Sequence record: MZ189261.1
Length of the DNA stretch: 64,000 nt
Direction: 5' to 3' (one strand)
Source: Escherichia phage S143_2
Below the pieces are notes generated by a model. That model searched no databases. It saw only the letters and a program-made list of their open reading frames with translations, and had not been told where the DNA came from. The first letter of the stretch is position 1, and each line of letters starts with the position of its first letter. The position numbers and the translations under genes are program-made. Of this stretch, positions 3,611-44,754 are shown in pieces.

Positions 3611-5299
3611 TTATGAAACAGTCATTACCGTAAATCGTCCAACTTTGCTCATCTGAAGATGTTGTCCATAACGTTGAGGGTCATGGTCTCGATGAGAGAT
3701 AATGAACACATTAGTATTTTGTAAACTTCCAAGAATGGTATCTATAGCCTTAACAGCCTCAGAATCGACAGCACCATCAAAAACCTCATCAAGAATCAGA
3801 GTGTTGATTTTAACACCAGAGACCTTTTCAGCAATATCTCGCCATGTAAACAACAATGCGATATCGATACGTGCCTTTTCACCTTGACTAAATGAAGCAT
3901 AACTAAAATCTTCACGACCACGTGATTTTATAGATTCATTGAATTCTTCGTCAATAGAAAACACGTAATCAGCTTCCATGATTTTAAGATAATAGTTAAT
4001 CTGCTTGTTGAACAGAGGCACATATTTTTTAATGATAGCACCTTTAATACCAGAATCTTTTAACATATCTGTGATAATACCACGATGGTATTTTTCAAGA
4101 ACGATATCAGATTTTGTTTTAATGATTTTATCAAGTTCTTTTTGAAGCAAAGCTATCTCATCAGCATGGTCGATAAATTCCGCCGAGGCTTGTTCTATTG
4201 CAGCTTTAACTTTCTTAGCTTTATCAATAGTGGCAATCATTGCTTGTTTTTTGGTACGAATATCAGATGCAAGGTCCTGTTTAGTCTTAACATTAGCTCT
4301 ATATTCGTCCACTAGGACACTCAGATTATCTCTGTGGCAGGTAAGTTGCTCGAATGAGTGATTACATTCATGAAGCTTATCGGTAATCTTAGAGACAATA
4401 GGATCACCCTGGTGCAACTGTGATGCACAAGTAGGACATGTACCACCATCATGATACATCTTAATAACTTTGTTATATGAGTCAATTTTAGATTTAATCA
4501 AGAATGCTTCTTGTCCGATCTTGTTGAACGCCTCAGTAGGGTCTTCGTCAAGAACGATATTAAGTAGACGCTCGTTAGCTTCTTCGATTTCTGCTTTTAA
4601 TGAACGAGCTTCTTTGGCTAGGTCGTCATACATATTCTGTAGACGCGCTACATTATCACCAGATAATTTCTTTTGACGTTCGATATTCTCGTTATAAATC
4701 TTAATTTGTTGGATAATACCATCTTTCTTGGCATCGAGAACTTGTCCCTGGGAATTAAGTTCTCGAACTTGAGACTTATTGATTTTATCCATTTCAGCGA
4801 GTGTGCCGACTTCTAAAAGGTCTTCGACAAGTTTTCTACGAGCAGGGGTGCTAAGAGCCATGAAAGGGGTATACCCTGCCGTCCCAAGCACAACGATTTG
4901 TTTAAAAGACGCGTATGACATTCCGATGCTACGTTCAAATTCTTCTTGGAAGTCACGACTGCTGGCAGATTCATCAAGACGAACACCGTCAACGGAGATT
5001 TCGAAAATATTGGGCTTTTGGCCACGTTTAATGAAGTATTTTTTACCATCGAATTCCATCCAAAGCTCAACTAAGAGCTCTTTCTTGTTCGTGCTATTAA
5101 TGATTTGCCCTTTCTTAACATCACGAAATGGTTTACCGAAAAGTCCGAAAGTAATGGCTTCTAACATCGTAGATTTACCACCACCATTTTTACCGGTGAT
5201 TAATGTCTTTTGGACTTTATCTAATTGGATATCAATAGGATTCCCACCTACCGACATGATGTTTTGATAACGAACACGATTTAATTTAAATGATTTCAT
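3611..5299 (-). CDS. 46: recombination nuclease ATPase subunit gp46 (Rad50/SbcC-like)
   Basis: 562 aa; Walker A GKNGGGKST; long coiled-coil middle; CxxC hook (CPTC); T4 gp46 is 560 aa. Confidence 0.9.
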   Translation of the reverse strand: MKSFKLNRVRYQNIMSVGGNPIDIQLDKVQKTLITGKNGGGKSTMLEAITFGLFGKPFRDVKKGQIINSTNKKELLVELWMEFDGKKYFIKRGQKPNIFEISVDGVRLDESASSRDFQEEFERSIGMSYASFKQIVVLGTAGYTPFMALSTPARRKLVEDLLEVGTLAEMDKINKSQVRELNSQGQVLDAKKDGIIQQIKIYNENIERQKKLSGDNVARLQNMYDDLAKEARSLKAEIEEANERLLNIVLDEDPTEAFNKIGQEAFLIKSKIDSYNKVIKMYHDGGTCPTCASQLHQGDPIVSKITDKLHECNHSFEQLTCHRDNLSVLVDEYRANVKTKQDLASDIRTKKQAMIATIDKAKKVKAAIEQASAEFIDHADEIALLQKELDKIIKTKSDIVLEKYHRGIITDMLKDSGIKGAIIKKYVPLFNKQINYYLKIMEADYVFSIDEEFNESIKSRGREDFSYASFSQGEKARIDIALLFTWRDIAEKVSGVKINTLILDEVFDGAVDSEAVKAIDTILGSLQNTNVFIISHRDHDPQRYGQHLQMSKVGRFTVMTVS

Positions 5300-7306: not shown

Positions 7307-7589
7307 TAGCCTGACGAGTAGTAACCCACTGGATTTTAATTAACTTGTCATTATATGGTTGTCGTAGAATATCCCGAGATTTCTTAATAGCATATTCGTA
7401 AGCTTCGAAGTTGTTTTGAATTGCTGCTTCTTGAGCATGAGCATAAAGACGGTTTAGTTCAAAACGATTCTTTTTAAGAATCTTTTCGGATTTTTTACGT
7501 GCTTCAGCTTCATTTTTCTTTTGGATTTCTTGTAGCATTTTAGCTACTGCATCTTCTGCTTCTTTATTTTCAATAATCTCGGTAGTCAT
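7266..7589 (-). CDS. hypothetical protein
   Basis: 107-aa ORF downstream of gene 55. Confidence 0.45.
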   Translation of the reverse strand: MTTEIIENKEAEDAVAKMLQEIQKKNEAEARKKSEKILKKNRFELNRLYAHAQEAAIQNNFEAYEYAIKKSRDILRQPYNDKLIKIQWVTTRQAIEDIINGASSNKV

Positions 7590-7590
7590 A

Positions 7591-7806
7591 TTATCTCATT
7601 AAATTAAAATAAAAACGTCCATCCTCTTCAATACAGAACTCATACTCAACCGGAGTCCCATTTATTGAAAATGACACGTCATGTGGGTTCAAAGGGTCGA
7701 TGTCAAAATTAATTTTAAATTCACGACCCAACAGTTTTACCAAATAAGGGATTGCTTCGTCAAAAGGTTCTTCTAAGTAGTTAGAGATGTCAATTGTCAT
7801 CCTCAT
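7591..7806 (-). CDS. hypothetical protein (start uncertain)
   Basis: track ORF 7591..7884 overlaps gene 55 by 95 nt; internal Met ([10 protein letters not shown]) more plausible. Confidence 0.35.
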
Positions 7807-8347
7807 ATAAAAAATCCAAACTAGGCGAATCGCTAACAACTTCCTTCTTTTCAGCCCCAGGAGCTTTATAAGCGGATTCTTCATAATGCGTCATTTTATC
7901 GTAGATGTCTTGAATAAACGTTTCATCTACCAACGCTACCATATCATCGTCATGACTGTCGTAGACATTATGAACGAAGTAACTATATTTCTTTGCAACT
8001 TCCTTACGTTCTTTTTTGATACGTTGGACAAAAGCATTAAAACAAGCTCGAGTTATGTATGCATGTGGGTTATTGTACTTAGTTTCGTCGAAATTATGAA
8101 GTCCCTTAATAGAGGCTTCAATCCCATCTGCAATCATCTCCTGCTTCCAAGACTGGGTATATCCTGAAAAGTTGAAACGTTTGGACAGGCCTTCGGCGAT
8201 AAGCATAATTGCTAAACCGATGGTATCATTCTGACGAATAATTTTGTTTGGGTCTTTATTATTTAAGAGCTCCTTTTTCCACTCGATTATAGCGGCGAGA
8301 AGCTCTTTATTATTCACATAGTTATTTTTAGGTTTTTGTTCAGTCAT
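7790..8347 (-). CDS. 55: late-transcription sigma factor gp55
   Basis: 185 aa, same as T4 gp55; sequence NYVNNKELL...[40 protein letters not shown] matches T4 gp55. Confidence 0.9.
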
Positions 8348-8913: not shown

Positions 8914-8937
8914 TTTACCGCCTTAACAATTTTAAGG

Positions 8938-9243
8938 TCAACGAATTTTTTTCTTACGTTGATTTTTCATACGACGGATAGTCTTTTCAGAGATTTCATG
9001 TTTCTGATAAGCTTTAGATTCAACACCAAATGCAGCAACGTCAAATTCAGAAAGAATATATTGTACTAGAATTTCACGAATAGAATTACGTCCAATTTTC
9101 TGGTCGTGTTTTTGCATGATTTCATAAAGACGGAATTCCCACGCGTCAAGAACTTGAGGAGTAACAATATTGCCGGATTCCAGAAGAGCAACAACTTTAT
9201 CGAAAGCGAAAGAATTAACTACGTTTTTGATTTTAGTAGACAT
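8938..9243 (-). CDS. hypothetical protein (start corrected to internal ATG)
   Basis: track start 9291 lies inside promoter element; ATG at 9243 preceded by GAGGA. Confidence 0.4.
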   Translation of the reverse strand: MSTKIKNVVNSFAFDKVVALLESGNIVTPQVLDAWEFRLYEIMQKHDQKIGRNSIREILVQYILSEFDVAAFGVESKAYQKHEISEKTIRRMKNQRKKKIR

Positions 9244-29896: not shown

Positions 29897-30253
29897 TCAA
29901 TTAGAAAATAAATTTATCCAAGATTTTTCTTTAATCAAAAATGGGTCGGAATTAAACGCCATTAAACTTTGAGTGATTAATCCCTTAAATGGCCCATCAA
30001 TAAATTCCATTTTGAAATGCGGAATACTAGTCATCAACCGTGCATTAGGAGCAGTACAAAGAACCTGCTGCCCTGCGAACGGACCTTTAGTCAAACGATA
30101 TCGTTTAGGTTTAAAATGGTAAATCTCATAATTTTCTACAAGAGCCCTTTTATTGCATACTGGGCTGTTATAACAATACTCAAAAACTTCAATAGTGGTC
30201 ATCATTGCATTCCAATCACAAAAAATTGAGGACGAGCAATACCGCCGATGCAA
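29897..30253 (-). CDS. hypothetical protein (start uncertain)
   Basis: 118-aa ORF, overlaps upstream gene. Confidence 0.4.
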   Translation of the reverse strand: MHRRYCSSSIFCDWNAMMTTIEVFEYCYNSPVCNKRALVENYEIYHFKPKRYRLTKGPFAGQQVLCTAPNARLMTSIPHFKMEFIDGPFKGLITQSLMAFNSDPFLIKEKSWINLFSN

Positions 30254-30741
30254 TATTTGCTTTTGCAGCAGTGCTGTACTGATTTAATATGGACATTGTA
30301 AATCTTATCCATATCAGGAGCTTTAATAGGCTCGTCAATTATATACAGAATACGAGAAAGCGTTAATCCACGGAATTTAGAACCTTCATTACCAATAAAA
30401 CTACGGACAGAATCAGTAAATAAACGGAATCGAATATCATCGCTAGAATAACGAGAAAATTCTTTTTTAATGTTGCCAGCAGAAATTTTAGCATAAGCTG
30501 AAGTATTAGAAAGAACAATAACTGTTCCACCATCGAGCAGCCAATTAGCGGCAAAATTAGTTACTGCAGTTGATTTACCAGATTGTCTGCCACCATCTAA
30601 ACGAAGTGTACAGTACTGCTTGAGTACGTCTTCAAATGGTGGGGCATAACCGTTCTTACAAATTTCTTCTACTCTAGCATCAGAATGGTGTGTAAAAGCA
30701 TTCATCAGGGATAGATAAGGTCCAGTTAAAAATGTTCTCAT
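30202..30741 (-). CDS. small P-loop NTPase
   Basis: 179 aa; Walker A GGRQSGKST, Walker B-like LYIIDEP. Confidence 0.45.
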   Translation of the reverse strand: MRTFLTGPYLSLMNAFTHHSDARVEEICKNGYAPPFEDVLKQYCTLRLDGGRQSGKSTAVTNFAANWLLDGGTVIVLSNTSAYAKISAGNIKKEFSRYSSDDIRFRLFTDSVRSFIGNEGSKFRGLTLSRILYIIDEPIKAPDMDKIYNVHIKSVQHCCKSKYCIGGIARPQFFVIGMQ

Positions 30742-30914
30742 TTAGTTTCTCTTAAGGTTGGGGCCATTCCGTGGCACATGTTAGGTCCTTCGACTCGCTA
30801 TGTAAACCCATTACCGCACTTGGGCTCGACCTTATTACAGGTTGGAAAAGGTACATCACTCAGAGGACTCGACGTTCATAAGGAGAGGTTGCGTTTCCCT
30901 TTATTAGGCAAGAA

Positions 30915-31244
30915 TTATACTCTAGGCTTTTGAGCTTGTTTGGTATTGGATTCCCATGCGGCTTTGGTAATTTTGTTAGCGGCATAACCAAAGGCACTAG
31001 ATAGAACACCTTTAGAGTTGAATACATCCAATCCAATAAGTACACCGGCTGTGTTAAATTTAGGAGCAAAGTACGCATTAGTTTTAGAAAGAGCTTTTTT
31101 CAATTCAGGGTCTTGAACCAAGCCATCAAAAACGCCTTTACTATTTACTTTATATGTTACTTTGGGATTTTTAGCTTCTTCGATAGCAGCTTTCTGTTCC
31201 GCAGATAATGTAACTTCAGTGATAAACTCTTGATATGTTTTCAT
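30915..31244 (-). CDS. internal protein (CTS-bearing), IPII-like position
   Basis: 109 aa; N-terminal MKTYQEFITE capsid targeting sequence. Confidence 0.6.
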   Translation of the reverse strand: MKTYQEFITEVTLSAEQKAAIEEAKNPKVTYKVNSKGVFDGLVQDPELKKALSKTNAYFAPKFNTAGVLIGLDVFNSKGVLSSAFGYAANKITKAAWESNTKQAQKPRV

Positions 31245-31282
31245 ATGTTTCCTTTAAATGTAAATAGGCCTAAGTATCGGCC

Positions 31283-31861
31283 TTAATTACCACGGGCTGC
31301 ATTAGCAACGGCATAAGCGTACTGAACATTAGCGTCTTTAAACGTACCTTTAGAGGTATCTATTTCTGCCTTAAAGCCGCCTTTAGCCATAACATCGGCA
31401 AATTCTTTACGGAAGGCCATTGCATCAAGACCTTTCCATGATGATTTATGCTTGGCAAATTCAAGACCTGCGAAGTTGACAGCTTTAGCCAATTTATTAT
31501 CAATGACCCATTTACCGGCTTTAGGCACAAACTTCGGTCCTTTTTGTTTAGAGAACAGTTTTAAATTCCAGCGACGAAGATCACTGTCGGCTTTAACAAA
31601 AGCTGCGTCTAAGTTACTAGCAACAACATCTTCAATATGAGCAAATTTAAGTCCGTCAACTTCAATATTTAGATCGTTACGCCAGCGAAGTCCTTCCCAA
31701 GCGAAGGCTTTAAAATCAGAAGCCTTTGTGGCTAGATATCGTTCAATTGGAGCAGTTTTAGGGTCAAAGCCGTTTCCACCACGATAAGTCCACTCGTCCT
31801 TATTAATGCCTTGAGCTTTTCCTGCAAAGGCCTCGGCGATAAATTCTTTATACGTTTTCAT
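31283..31861 (-). CDS. ipIII: internal protein III-like (CTS-bearing)
   Basis: 192 aa (T4 IPIII 194 aa); N-terminal MKTYKEFIAE. Confidence 0.6.
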   Translation of the reverse strand: MKTYKEFIAEAFAGKAQGINKDEWTYRGGNGFDPKTAPIERYLATKASDFKAFAWEGLRWRNDLNIEVDGLKFAHIEDVVASNLDAAFVKADSDLRRWNLKLFSKQKGPKFVPKAGKWVIDNKLAKAVNFAGLEFAKHKSSWKGLDAMAFRKEFADVMAKGGFKAEIDTSKGTFKDANVQYAYAVANAARGN

Positions 31862-31887
31862 TTTTGTTCCTATTGTTTTAATTTATG

Positions 31888-32202
31888 TTATTCTTTAGGG
31901 AAGTTTTTAGAGTATGCGTCGTAAAGTTTATTGCCGATGCGACGGAAGACTTTAGCTGCAAAACGGTTTTCAGGGTTTTTAATCATGATTTGCATCATGT
32001 AAGTTCCTGCGTCCGAAAGAGCTTCTTCATAGTACCCATTAATTTCTTTAAGAGTCCTACGTTTACCACCAGGACCATCAACAGTAATTTTCCATTTACC
32101 TGTAGAAGTGCGGCTCGGTGGCTCAACTTGTTCAATCCAAATATAACCACCTTCAACGCGTTGGTTGGCTGATTCTGCAATAAATTCTTTATACGTTTTC
32201 AT
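31888..32202 (-). CDS. internal protein (CTS-bearing)
   Basis: 104 aa; MKTYKEFIAE leader. Confidence 0.6.
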   Translation of the reverse strand: MKTYKEFIAESANQRVEGGYIWIEQVEPPSRTSTGKWKITVDGPGGKRRTLKEINGYYEEALSDAGTYMMQIMIKNPENRFAAKVFRRIGNKLYDAYSKNFPKE

Positions 32203-32214
32203 TTTTTGTTTCCT

Positions 32215-32263
32215 TGTTTGTTTTGATAGAGTAATTATACCATATTAATACTTAAGCGTAAAC
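32215..32263 (-). promoter_or_regulatory. early promoter module (family C variant)
   Basis: minus strand GTTTAC-gcttaagtattaatatgg-TATAAT-tactctatcaaaac upstream of IP gene. Confidence 0.45.
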
Positions 32264-32266
32264 TGT

Positions 32267-32527
32267 TTAAGCTTTACCGCCAGAAATAATTCCGAAGTTG
32301 TTAAAATCGTATCCAATATCGTCAACATCTACTTTAGGGCTTGCTACAACATAAGCAATTTCACTACGTTTTGCATAGGTGTTGATTTCTTTACCATCGC
32401 CACCTAAGAAAAAATACCCATTACGTTTTAATGAGCCAAAGTCTTCCGCATCACCAATGAAAGCTTTAACTTTAAATTTGGGGCTTTTGGCATCTGCTTC
32501 AGAGATAAATTCTTGGTACATTTTCAT
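32267..32527 (-). CDS. internal protein (CTS-bearing)
   Basis: 86 aa; MKMYQEFISE leader. Confidence 0.55.
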   Translation of the reverse strand: MKMYQEFISEADAKSPKFKVKAFIGDAEDFGSLKRNGYFFLGGDGKEINTYAKRSEIAYVVASPKVDVDDIGYDFNNFGIISGGKA

Positions 32528-32533
32528 TTTTCC

Positions 32534-32947
32534 TTAGTAAATTGATTTACCATAGTATTTGTACCAAGTAGGGCGCTGAGCAATTTTTTCATCTAAGCGT
32601 GCTTGACTTATCGCAATGGACGCTTCGGACGGGACATAATTATTACGAAATTCGGCAGGGATGTCGGAAATATCCTGGACAGTCGTGTCCTTGATTTTGA
32701 AACCACGTTTCAAGCATTCAGCGATTAGCTCGATTTGTCGTAAACGTAAAAATTCAAGTTTGTCGTAAAAGAATGTTACGTGACCTGTGCCTAAGATAAA
32801 TGTTGGAGAGATTTTAAAATCCTTTACACGTTTACCGTTTTGAACATGTTTACGGACTGCACCAAATACGCGTGGTAATTCACGATACTCAGCCATAAGA
32901 TGTTGGTCGGTCAGTTCAGAAACAAGTGTTAAATTGATACGAGTCAT
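32534..32947 (-). CDS. denV: endonuclease V (pyrimidine dimer DNA glycosylase) DenV
   Basis: 138 aa from ATG 32947: [35 protein letters not shown]... matches T4 DenV. Confidence 0.9.
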
Positions 32948-33005
32948 AAGTTCCTCCAAGTAGTTGATGAATGTATAGTATCAAAGTCCTTGGAGGAAGT
33001 AAACA

Positions 33006-33287
33006 CTATTTTTCTGAAGCGCCTGAAATATATTTTTCAAGACGTTGTTTCATCAGCGAGCCGTTCTTAGCGATTTCTTCCGGTTTATCGCACATACGCA
33101 ACAAGGCTTCAAGCTTAACGATATCGCTGGTACGTTCAAATTTGCGAGTATCTATCTTACTAGCAAGTTCAGAAATACGTGCTAATAGACTTTCAGCTTC
33201 AACCAAAGCTGCACCTAGCTTAGTTGCAAATGTGTCAGTAGCTTCGTTAAGAATAGATTCTGATAAAAATTCACTATATGTTTTCAT
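33006..33287 (-). CDS. internal protein (CTS-bearing)
   Basis: 93 aa from ATG 33287; [10 protein letters not shown] leader. Confidence 0.55.
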
Positions 33288-33772
33288 ATATACGCTTTCC
33301 AAGTTCCTGTTTTAAATGTTGAGATTACGCGTTTCGCGCGATTAGGTGTCTGACGATACCATTTAGATTGGGCTAGATTTACTGCCGCTTCGTCCCAACG
33401 TTTCTGTTGAAGCATACGAAGAGAATTAGTAAAACCAGCGACGCCTGCTACACCCATTTGGAAGACCATATTGACCAATGCACATCGACGAACTGCATCT
33501 AAAGAATCGTATACCGGTTTAAGTTTAGCATTACCCAAGATTCCGCGAACAGCTTTATCAACGTCTTCATTAAATAACTTTTCAGCCTCATCAAGGGTAA
33601 TTGTACCGTTGCATTTACGTCCGATCATTCTGTCAAGTTCAGCTTTAGCTACGGCTAAAGACGGGTTCTTTGTTACTAAATGACCTATGCCAATCGTCCA
33701 AAAGCCTTCAGTGTCTTTGTATAAAGTCAGTCTAAGACCTTCGTCATTACGAAGCATTTCAAATATATTCAT
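33284..33772 (-). CDS. e: lysozyme (endolysin), gene e
   Basis: 162 aa from ATG 33772: [32 protein letters not shown]...; matches T4 lysozyme incl. catalytic E11/D20/T26 context. Confidence 0.9.
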
Positions 33773-35764: not shown

Positions 35765-35804
35765 TAATAGGACTACTATATCATAGTCCTATAATTGTGT
35801 AAAC
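35765..35804 (-). promoter_or_regulatory. early promoter plus stem-loop module (family C)
   Basis: minus strand GTTTAC-acaattaTAGGACTATgaTATAGTAGTCCTATTAAAAC. Confidence 0.5.
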
Positions 35805-37057: not shown

Positions 37058-37099
37058 TTTGATAGGACTACTATAACATAGCCCTATCTTGTTGTAAAC
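37058..37099 (-). promoter_or_regulatory. early promoter plus stem-loop module (family C)
   Basis: minus strand GTTTAC-aacaagaTAGGGCTATgtTATAGTAGTCCTATCAAAT. Confidence 0.5.
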
Positions 37100-42192: not shown

Positions 42193-42269
<77 letters not shown>

Positions 42270-42273
42270 TATT

Positions 42274-42348
42274 TGGCGGACGTGATAGGATTCGAACCTA
42301 TAACCAATCGCTTAACAGGCGATCGCTCTGCCATTGAGCTACACATCC
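42274..42348 (-). tRNA. tRNA-Asn (anticodon GUU)
   Basis: 75-nt cloverleaf; anticodon stem ATCGC/GCGAT, loop CUGUUAA; T-arm GGTTCGAATCC; encoded CCA. Confidence 0.8.
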
Positions 42349-42352
42349 AAAT

Positions 42353-42439
42353 TGGTGGGGAGTGATGGAGTCGAACCACCCGAGTCGCAATGACAATGGA
42401 TTTACAGTCCACACCGCTACCTCTACGGGATAACTCCCC
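42353..42439 (-). tRNA. tRNA-Tyr (anticodon GUA)
   Basis: 87 nt with long variable arm; anticodon loop CUGUAAA; acceptor GGGGAGT/ACTCCCC; encoded CCA. Confidence 0.75.
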
Positions 42440-42451
42440 TAATTCATAATT

Positions 42452-42526
42452 TGGTGGCCCTGGGTGGAATTGAACCACCATCTGGCGATTATGAGTCGCT
42501 TGCTTGAACCTTCCAGCTACAGGGCC
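42452..42526 (-). tRNA. tRNA with CAU anticodon (Met or Ile2)
   Basis: 75-nt cloverleaf; anticodon loop CUCAUAA; position after Thr corresponds to T4 tRNA-Ile. Confidence 0.75.
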
Positions 42527-42527
42527 T

Positions 42528-42604
42528 TGGTGCTGATTGACGGAATCGAACCGCCGACCTTCTCATTACAAGTGAGTTGCTCTACCTACTGAGCTAAATC
42601 AGCA
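42528..42604 (-). tRNA. tRNA-Thr (anticodon UGU)
   Basis: 77-nt cloverleaf; anticodon loop CUUGUAA; T-arm GGTTCGATTCC. Confidence 0.8.
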
Positions 42605-42608
42605 AAAC

Positions 42609-42698
42609 TGGCGGAGGCGATAGGATTTGAACCTATGAGTCGCCGGAGCGACTGCCGGTTTTCAAGACCGGTGCATTAAACCACTCTGCCACGCCTCC
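42609..42698 (-). tRNA. tRNA-Ser (anticodon UGA)
   Basis: 90 nt with long variable arm; anticodon loop CUUGAAA; acceptor GGAGGCG/CGCCTCC. Confidence 0.8.
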
Positions 42699-42700
42699 AG

Positions 42701-42774
42701 TCTCCATACAAGGATTTGAACCTTGGGCCTCCTGATCCCAAATCAGGCGCTCTACCAAACTGAGCTACACGGAG
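42701..42774 (-). tRNA. tRNA-Pro (anticodon UGG)
   Basis: 74 nt; anticodon loop UUUGGGA; T-arm GGTTCAAATCC; CCA not encoded. Confidence 0.75.
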
Positions 42775-42784
42775 TAAATTAAAT

Positions 42785-42858
<74 letters not shown>

Positions 42859-42863
42859 AAATT

Positions 42864-42950
42864 TGGTGCGAGAAGTGGGACTCGAACCCACAAGGAAATC
42901 ATTCCGCAGCATTTTAAGTGCTGTGCCTTTACCAATTTGGCCATTCTCGC
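42864..42950 (-). tRNA. tRNA-Leu (anticodon UAA)
   Basis: 87 nt with long variable arm; anticodon loop CUUAAAA. Confidence 0.8.
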
Positions 42951-42951
42951 G

Positions 42952-43024
42952 CTGGGAATAAAGGACTCGAACCTTTGCATCCTGGAATCAAAATCCAGTG
43001 CCTTACCAACTTGGCTAATTCCCA
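42952..43024 (-). tRNA. tRNA-Gln (anticodon UUG)
   Basis: 73 nt; anticodon loop UUUUGAU; T-arm GGTTCGAGTCC; CCA not encoded. Confidence 0.75.
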
Positions 43025-44048: not shown

Positions 44049-44357
44049 CTATTTTATTCCGCGTGATGCAATCGTATTCTGCCGTTTAACGCCAGTTTGT
44101 TTAAAGTTATGATTGTCAAGTTGATCGGTACGAGCAACTCCGAATGATGATTTAATCTTAGCTTTAGATCCTTTAGTTATAGAAATAAACATCTCGGGAG
44201 CCCCTTTCTTAAAGTCCGAAGCAATTACTTCAACACCGTTCTTAGCAAGTGACCTCAGAATTGCTTCCGCGTACTCATCATCAAGACCCGCTTGAGTATG
44301 AATAACGAATGTCTTTGGTGCAGCCGCTTCATTGATAAATTCTTTATAGGTTTTCAT
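44049..44357 (-). CDS. internal protein (CTS-bearing), IPI-locus
   Basis: 102 aa; MKTYKEFINE leader; early promoter module upstream. Confidence 0.6.
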   Translation of the reverse strand: MKTYKEFINEAAAPKTFVIHTQAGLDDEYAEAILRSLAKNGVEVIASDFKKGAPEMFISITKGSKAKIKSSFGVARTDQLDNHNFKQTGVKRQNTIASRGIK

Positions 44358-44417: not shown

Positions 44418-44690
44418 TCATTTTAAATAAATTGCGTATTTTTTATAACCCGCCGACTCATGACGAAGACCCTTATCATTAGCAAAACGCTCAATGTTGT
44501 TAATTTGATTCTGGTCAAGTTCAGAGATGTCAAACACGAAAAAGTTACGTTTGTTACCAACTGTTACATAGTCAGTTAAATCAATATCATATAGGTAATT
44601 GATGTCAGCAATCAAAGTCTTGACAGCTTTGCTAATTTTTACTTTTTCGTTAAAAGTAGCTTCATTGATAAATTCTTTATAGGTTTTCAT
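44418..44690 (-). CDS. internal protein (CTS-bearing), IPI-locus
   Basis: 90 aa; MKTYKEFINE leader. Confidence 0.6.
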   Translation of the reverse strand: MKTYKEFINEATFNEKVKISKAVKTLIADINYLYDIDLTDYVTVGNKRNFFVFDISELDQNQINNIERFANDKGLRHESAGYKKYAIYLK

Positions 44691-44704: not shown

Positions 44705-44754
44705 GTCGTTTATTTGATAGGACTACTATAACATAGTCCTACAGGTGTGTAAAC
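44705..44754 (-). promoter_or_regulatory. early promoter plus stem-loop module (family C)
   Basis: minus strand GTTTAC-acacctgTAGGACTatgt-TATAGT-AGTCCTATCAAATAAAC. Confidence 0.5.

Follow-up and report, generated by a model that had tools for sequence, protein, structure and literature searches.

An expanded internal-protein cassette interleaved with denV in Escherichia phage S143_2 and its candidate injected anti-defence proteins

The stretch analysed here (the window) is 64,000 nucleotides (nt) of Escherichia phage S143_2, sequence record MZ189261.1; all coordinates below are window positions. Our analysis showed that it carries a cassette of five genes, called here CTS1 to CTS5, each beginning with a capsid-targeting sequence (CTS), and that denV, which is not CTS-led, lies inside the run. 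This cassette is the ipII/ipIII-type locus of Mosigvirus, one of two hypervariable internal-protein (IP) loci in T-even-type phages. Its products are probably injected, target-specific inhibitors of first-line defence, most likely of GmrSD-family type IV restriction. The parts of this reading differ in strength: it is very likely that the cassette members are packaged internal proteins and somewhat probable that they are anti-defence inhibitors, and type IV restriction as the specific target is rated below anti-defence inhibition in general. The genes of the cassette and its two flanks are as follows.

33284 to 33772, minus strand: e, T4-type lysozyme, the conserved upstream anchor of the cassette (Pfam Phage_lysozyme, E=7.5e-14).
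33006 to 33287, minus strand: CTS5, Ip5-type internal protein, 93 amino acids (aa) (phrog_3499 'internal head protein', E=1e-46).
32534 to 32947, minus strand: denV, pyrimidine-dimer glycosylase (endonuclease V), not CTS-led (Pfam Pyr_excise, PF03013, E=3e-14; phrog_1183, E=1.5e-62).
32267 to 32527, minus strand: CTS4, unnamed internal-protein family, 86 aa (phrog_2667 'internal head protein', E=3e-20).
31888 to 32202, minus strand: CTS3, Ip10, 104 aa (90%-identity cluster with Ip10 of phage Pol).
31283 to 31861, minus strand: CTS2, IPIII (Ip3) orthologue, 192 aa (phrog_5341, E=9e-118).
30915 to 31244, minus strand: CTS1, unnamed CTS-led protein, 109 aa (open reading frame (ORF) with leader).
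30202 to 30741, minus strand: vs.8-like P-loop gene, 179 aa.

The minus strand carries every gene in the 28-36 kb part of the window, and on that strand the cassette reads in the order listed, with a 173-nt spacer between CTS1 and the vs.8-like gene. The first gene is annotated as e or glycoside hydrolase in phi25-307, RB69 and T4. The original prediction, made from the letters of the window, had placed five CTS-led ORFs at 30915, 31283, 31888, 32267 and 33006; all were found, the numbers being their stop-codon ends. It had also placed denV among the CTS genes, which was borne out: denV sits between the fourth and the fifth of them, and CTS4 starts 6 nt past the denV stop codon. The ATG of CTS5 at 33287 overlaps the e stop codon as ATGA, and CTS5 is predicted to be translationally coupled to e through this overlap. 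The ORF listing extends CTS5 to a TTG at 33302, and the ATG was taken as the start.

A six-frame scan of the window for MK.Y.EF[IL].E gave exactly seven matches, all at ORF starts on the coding strand, namely the five cassette ORFs and two genes of a second locus. The expectation by chance is about 6e-5 from amino-acid frequencies, and 300 shuffles gave no match. The leaders are MKTYQEFITE in CTS1, MKTYKEFIAE in both CTS2 and CTS3, and MKMYQEFISE in CTS4. The predicted leader, MKTYxEFIxE, was present on all five ORFs, though not in that strict form, the real pattern being MK(T/M)YxEF(I/L)xE. Tyr4 and Phe7 are kept in all seven leaders. According to work summarised in PMC9026906, the first 10 residues of IPIII are enough to direct a protein to the head, residues 4 and 7 being the most important.

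Each leader closes with (I/L)-x-E, as ITE, IAE, IAE, ISE and LSE in CTS1, CTS2, CTS3, CTS4 and CTS5, respectively, and T4 Alt is cut by gp21 after ITE and LTE (PMC5694885). Cleavage by gp21 had been predicted after Glu10. The motif at the end of each leader agrees with this, but the site is probably wrong for the Ip5-type protein. In the Ip5 family LNE/ATD (the slash marks the putative cut) is invariant across genera, with LNE at residues 13-15, while residues 8-10 vary, being LSE in the window, LTV in VR20 and YQN in RB69. Because LNE/A is invariant while residues 8-10 are not, cleavage in this family probably follows Glu15, so that the leader would have 15 residues. The leader of T4 IPI, of 19 residues, is also longer than 10 (PMC9026906 and our own leader comparison). 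CTS1 carries a second motif, I-E-E, at residues 21-23. Genes 21 and 22 lie beyond the window; in RB69, a Mosigvirus, their products gp21 and gp22 share 88% and 76% identity, respectively, with the T4 proteins, so that targeting and cleavage by the T4 rules can reasonably be inferred but are not thereby demonstrated.

The two remaining leader matches are the following genes.

44418 to 44690, minus strand: sixth CTS gene, 90 aa, between 57B and tRNA.4 ('internal head protein' in several phages).
44049 to 44357, minus strand: seventh CTS gene, Ip7-type, 102 aa, between 57B and tRNA.4.

The body of the Ip7-type protein is 64% identical to RB69 ORF156 and 46% identical to 'ip7' of VR20. Both CTS loci match the polymorphic IP slots, which run from e to vs.8 and from 57B to tRNA.4. 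No ipI homologue was found in the window, and the ipI slot is filled by other CTS genes. In total the window has seven CTS genes, yet it lacks IPI and IPII. Among the named records, three of the seven CTS proteins have an exact match in Escherichia phage S143_2 alone.

The bodies after the leader had been predicted to be unrelated to one another, and an all-versus-all BLASTP of the leaderless proteins gave only E>0.2. Comparison of these bodies by BLAST and profiles also showed that they do not all match one T4 internal protein; CTS2 alone is IPIII. In BLASTP the mature part of CTS2 and T4 IPIII share 95% identity over 178 of 182 residues, the phage S143_2 record gives the identical protein the name 'internal protein III', and by its sequence CTS2 is orthologous to T4 IPIII over the full length. 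No body in the window matches IPI or IPII at BLASTP E<0.2.

The named member of the CTS3 cluster is 'Ip10 [Enterobacteria phage Pol]' (CAA84455), named in 1994. CTS3 is also 71-72% identical to Ip10 of VR20 (71%) and SP18, and it was found by tblastn in 189 phage records, including those of Tequatrovirus, Gaprivervirus and Enterobacter phages. The CTS5 body is 92% identical to 'ip5' of VR20 and 100% identical to its counterparts in G8 and phi25-307; the protein is 47% identical to 'ipV' of phage GiZh and occurs in 496 phage records. The name Ip5 rests on depositors' annotation, the note in VR20 being 'similar to bacteriophage T6 Ip5'. A literature search on Ip10, Ip7 and Ip5 returned unrelated papers only.

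The other two of the five proteins, CTS4 and CTS1, belong to unnamed families. CTS4 is found in 217 phage records, labelled 'internal head protein' or 'hypothetical', and is 74% identical to VR20_119. CTS1 is found in 90 phage records and is 'hypothetical' in every one inspected; no annotation has yet called it an internal protein. An exhaustive HMMER search for CTS1 among 1.84 billion representative proteins gave one real distant cluster, at 39% identity, from Dhakavirus-type phages, whose members are CTS-led too (MKTYQQFITE). CTS1 and Ip10 are placed in one family in phrog_3966. This grouping was rejected (BLASTP E=0.55; hhalign probability 0.09% with leaderless profiles), and we read it as leader-driven because the leaderless profiles give so low a probability.

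No Pfam domain was found in any CTS body. The sole Pfam match, of Ip10 to CsgH, was below threshold (E=0.07) and was rejected. A PDB sequence search with the four non-IPIII bodies gave nothing below E=0.09, and the Pfam, PDB and HMMER searches revealed no relatives of the bodies outside T4-like phages. Homologue searches gave few diverse sequences for the structure-prediction alignments. The Ip10 model was unusable (predicted local distance difference test, pLDDT, 48; alignment of 3 sequences). For CTS4, one of five AlphaFold2 models reached a pLDDT of 81 and the others about 45; the best model has a predicted beta-alpha-beta-beta-alpha-beta order. Foldseek with this model gave no PDB match better than E=0.38, and BFVD returned its own family only.

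The original prediction had set this arrangement against that of T4, in which denV lies outside the ip genes. The contrast is correct, as T4 has the order e-ipIII-ipII-denV-vs.8: the T4 slot holds two genes with denV after them, whereas the slot in the window holds five with denV inside the run. The denV-embedded layout is not new, however, and the T4 arrangement of e-ipIII-ipII-denV is one variant among many. The region in the window is 97.8% identical to that of its closest relative, Shigella phage phi25-307, which belongs to Mosigvirus and to the RB69 group. RB69, sequenced in 2003, has e-ORF127(Ip5)-denV-ORF125(CTS4)-ORF124(Ip10)-ORF123(CTS1)-vs.8. The order e-Ip5-denV-CTS4-Ip10-...-CTS1-vs.8 is thus common to the window, RB69 (ORF123c-ORF127c, NC_004928) and phi25-307 (NC_055734, gp082-gp088), and the proteins of the shared genes are 93-100% identical to those of the window. 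RB69 differs in lacking ipIII and in altered leaders or C-termini on three genes, and phi25-307 in one extra module, ipII, between ipIII and CTS1.

Beyond this group, VR20 (KP007360, Gaprivervirus) has e-ip5-denV-ip10-ORF119-ip7-vs.8, with the ip names in the record. It resembles the window in the place of denV and in having homologues of Ip5, CTS4 and Ip10 in the same order (92%, 74% and 71%). It differs in having ip7 in the e-vs.8 locus, where the window has its Ip7-type gene in the other locus, and in lacking ipIII and CTS1. Dhakavirus WG01 has two CTS genes, denV and two further CTS genes. Tequatrovirus G8 has e-Ip5, then a 110-nt denV remnant with an internal deletion, then CTS4-ipIII. 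The remnant (NC_054915, locus 3753-3921) keeps the denV promoter, the first three and the last approximately 20 codons, and has lost the middle. This internal deletion indicates that denV is dispensable and that the G8 cassette derives from a denV-embedded layout. Tequatrovirus SH7 has e-Ip10, a gene for a 157-aa CTS protein and vs.8, without denV. The content of the cassette was different in each of the 8 phages compared.

A variable internal-protein cluster is a long-known, textbook feature of T-even-type phages. In two articles (PMC3012670, PMC12373910), T-even phages are described as having diverse internal proteins that share the CTS alone, at least 10 being reported, with citation of Repoila et al. 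1994, to whom polymorphic IP loci are also credited. The reading of the window as an expanded CTS-led cassette, put forward in the original prediction, agrees with every feature open to a sequence test: the leader and its (I/L)-x-E protease motif, the genomic location, the make-up of the proteins and the orthology of CTS2 to IPIII. In comparison with T4 IPI-III, the proteins share the leader, the protease motif, the genomic slots (e...vs.8 and 57B...tRNA.4) and a small, cysteine-poor make-up. They differ in that the window has neither ipI nor ipII and that the four other cassette bodies are unrelated.

Each module has four parts: its own early-type promoter or else close coupling to the gene before it, a ribosome-binding site, a leader of 10-15 residues and an unrelated small body. 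The proposed course of events is as follows. The leader would dock the protein onto the prohead scaffolding core, and gp21, the prohead protease, would then remove it after (I/L)-x-E. The mature protein of 8-20 kDa would stay among the packaged DNA and enter the host with it, where each protein would act as a stoichiometric inhibitor of one defence variant. Likely targets would be GmrSD-family variants of the modification-dependent enzymes that attack sugar-modified cytosines. Previous studies have shown that T4 Ip1 inhibits GmrSD of CT596, Ip2 that of ECOR21 and Ip3 that of ECOR17, each being strictly specific (PMC12373910), and that plating on ECOR17 requires IPIII, which is also active if it is produced as a leaderless protein (PMC9391042). 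The original prediction that each extra CTS gene is a candidate injected anti-defence effector agrees with these T4 experiments. In the DNA of Mosigvirus, 5-hydroxycytosine is mono- and di-arabinosylated, and BrxU, a member of the GmrSD family, cuts this DNA (PMC13326640, PMC13390438); RB69 is restricted by some GmrSD enzymes (PMC6024577).

Because Mosigvirus DNA carries arabinosyl-5-hydroxycytosine and not glucosyl-hydroxymethylcytosine, the Ip5-type protein, CTS4, Ip10, CTS1 and the two second-locus proteins might be injected inhibitors tuned to nucleases of arabinosylated DNA, or to other first-response defences. We put this forward tentatively. If true, each arabinosyl-tuned inhibitor would point to a new inhibitor-defence pair.

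Several points weigh against the proposal of injected type IV inhibitors. Structure prediction offers no basis for a mechanism. A pattern scan of the cassette found no perfect late promoter (TATAAATA), though proteins that enter proheads must be made late. Our literature search found no virion proteomics for any Mosigvirus, and the packaging, cleavage and injection of the four non-T4 proteins are inferred. Two RB69 homologues have damaged leaders (MKTYMNFYQN...; IAA replacing ITE), and some members may therefore be decaying or use other cleavage sites. In RB69, ORF123, the CTS1 homologue (RB69 7450-7779), has IAA for ITE at residues 8-10 and has lost Glu10; ORF127, the Ip5 homologue (RB69 8923-9204), starts with MKTYMNFYQN and has no E-F pair; and ORF124, the Ip10 homologue (RB69 7848-8120), has a different and shorter C-terminus. 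These changes may affect function. A likeness in sequence or fold between the cassette bodies and IPI* was not found either, in PDB sequence searches or in the comparison of the CTS4 model with PDB.

An alternative that we regard as unlikely, though the best of the three weighed, is that the proteins are injected effectors with targets other than type IV enzymes, either other immediate-early defences or host processes, as with the action of Alt on RNA polymerase. Alt, an ADP-ribosyltransferase, is likewise packaged and processed by gp21 (PMC5694885), and the leader can carry any cargo, including green fluorescent protein and a nuclease (PMC3012670); the bodies other than CTS2 share no fold or sequence with IPI-III. 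However, the targets known so far, those of three internal proteins, are all GmrSD-family enzymes (PMC12373910), and proteins that are 8-11 kDa, poorly conserved and without a Pfam domain are unlike enzymes.

Slightly less probable still is a generic role, in which CTS proteins are structural or charge-neutralising head contents, basic and lysine-rich, that aid DNA condensation or ejection. The composition of some members agrees with this. CTS1 (9.7), IPIII, Ip10 and Ip7 of the second locus have mature isoelectric points (pI) of 9.6-9.9, and these four of the seven mature proteins contain 10-14% lysine; cysteine is absent from six of the seven, as in T4 IPI-III, and occurs once in Ip5 (CTS5). 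Lysines of internal proteins contact DNA phosphates, according to nuclear magnetic resonance work summarised in PMC3012670. But mature CTS4 and Ip5 are near-neutral, with pI 6.3-6.4 (CTS4 about 6.4), a property that speaks against DNA coating as their sole role. A generic role also leaves unexplained the unrelated folds, the fast turnover of modules between close relatives and the one-inhibitor-one-enzyme specificity of T4 Ip1-3 (PMC12373910). That some of the five are non-functional recombination debris, with the leader kept but no longer packaged or useful, is very improbable: the changes in the three RB69 homologues and the occurrence of fragmentary CTS4 homologues in public data speak for it, but all five are intact in the window with canonical leaders, and the conservation of each is 92-100% among tens to hundreds of phage genomes from different genera, which argues for selection. 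Injected inhibition of first-line defence is the reading that we prefer.

The comparison with phi25-307 also bears on how such cassettes change. The ipII of phi25-307 is 93% identical to T4 ipII, and its module is missing from the window. The two sequences align as identical through the ipII 5′ untranslated region (UTR) and the first 17 nt of its leader, ATGAAAACATATCAAGA, past which the window runs straight into the leader and body of CTS1. The indel is exactly one ipII module, bounded by a 31-nt leader-coding direct repeat, with the junction inside ATGAAAACATATCAAGA, a hallmark of homologous recombination between leaders. The cassette thus changes by homologous recombination between repeated leader-coding and promoter sequences, with whole modules gained, lost or reordered, and denV is a passenger trapped between modules. 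PeSL (promoter-early stem-loop) cassettes have been reported to mediate modular shuffling in the T4-type phages RB49 and phi1 (PMC2839356). Ours is similar in that GTTTAC...TATAAT-type promoters and stem-loops flank modules and in the whole-module indels between close relatives, but its one resolved crossover lies in the leader-coding repeat and not in a promoter element.

Pattern scans identified the following putative regulatory elements in the cassette.

32975 to 33004, minus strand: early-type promoter GTTTAC-N17-TACTAT before denV.
32234 to 32263, minus strand: early-type promoter TTTACG-N17-TATAAT with TG extension before Ip10 (10 of 12 consensus matches, the best in the region).
31266 to 31283, minus strand: terminator-like G+C hairpin AGGCC-N8-GGCCT followed by ATTTACATTT, directly 3′ of the ipIII stop codon.

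Early-type promoters (GTTTAC-N17-TAnnnT) also precede both genes of the second locus, and several promoters have stem-loops. The 5′ UTR after the ipIII hairpin is identical to the UTR preceding ipII in T4 and phi25-307, and the sequence before denV is homologous to the ipII-denV spacer of T4. Between 32948 and 33005 on the minus strand there is a 10-bp inverted repeat, TTCCTCCAAG...CTTGGAGGAA, whose T4 counterpart is CTCCTGTAG...CTACAGGAG. Since the repeat covers the denV Shine-Dalgarno sequence and the −10 element of the promoter is in the loop, this suggests that the Shine-Dalgarno would be sequestered and that translation of denV would depend on the transcript made. Near-identical copies of an early promoter and stem-loop unit, AAACAGTTTAC...TAGGACTATGTTATAGTAGTCCTATCAAA, were found at 35775-35804, 37070-37099 and 44725-44754, all on the minus strand. 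They precede small ORFs, have the look of PeSL elements and could serve as recombination sites.

A cluster of ten tRNA genes was found at 42193-43024 on the minus strand (Arg, Asn, Tyr, Met, Thr, Ser, Pro, Gly, Leu and Gln). The annotation of the matching part of RB69 has only two tRNAs.

The spacer between CTS1 and the vs.8-like gene (30742-30914) has 47% G+C, against 37.5% for the window. It is conserved in every enterobacterial T4-like genus, 1030 phage records in all, and is mostly unannotated there. The vs.8 annotated in T4 has 219 aa, compared with 179 aa in the window, the 40 extra N-terminal residues being read across the conserved element (T4 NC_000866, 64807-64912; window 30742-30800). 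Coding of the spacer as such an N-terminal extension was rejected: the reading frame is broken in the window, and the spacer is therefore probably non-coding. The T4 vs.8 start is probably mis-annotated, the real start being MRTFLTGPY. Within the spacer we identified one further element.

30797 to 30855, minus strand: RNA-like motif (covariance model, one copy in the window, 74 bits), with its core at approximately 30811-30841.

The core is a near-invariant 31-nt sequence, CCTGTNNNAAGGNCNNGCNNAAGNGCGGTAA. Vequintavirus (rV5-like) phages, phages of approximately 45 kb and IMG/VR contigs of about 46, 70 and 117-148 kb carry it as well. It had one match in 100,044 bacterial and archaeal species genomes and none in 5,426 complete E. 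coli genomes. The helix enclosing the core covaries among 28 distinct variants, columns 11-49 being CG in 18, GC in 9 and GU in 1, and columns 12-48 being CG in 14, GC in 8 and UA in 4. The covariation score was 0.37, compared with 0.11 for shuffles, and sliding the partner columns made it collapse. The orientation of the motif is that of the flanking genes in the inspected T4-like, Vequintavirus (inoa) and approximately 45-kb (EcoPhCCP1) records. No Rfam 15 family matched, so a known RNA was rejected, and nothing was found in the literature for the core sequence. The motif is probably an undescribed structured phage RNA common to unrelated coliphages. Its hairpin loop holds an invariant U-G-U, which is loosely reminiscent of the U33-G34-U35 of tRNA anticodon loops.

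Injected internal proteins are the earliest counter-defence of a phage and help to set the strain range of therapeutic T4-like phages. The cassette is a clean example of a module swap within a leader-coding repeat. Its value is that of an experimental shortlist of injected-protein candidates and not of a new concept. Many leader-carrying proteins beyond T4 Ip1-3 remain candidates, and this cassette offers four that are intact and widely conserved, in a genus with a different DNA modification.

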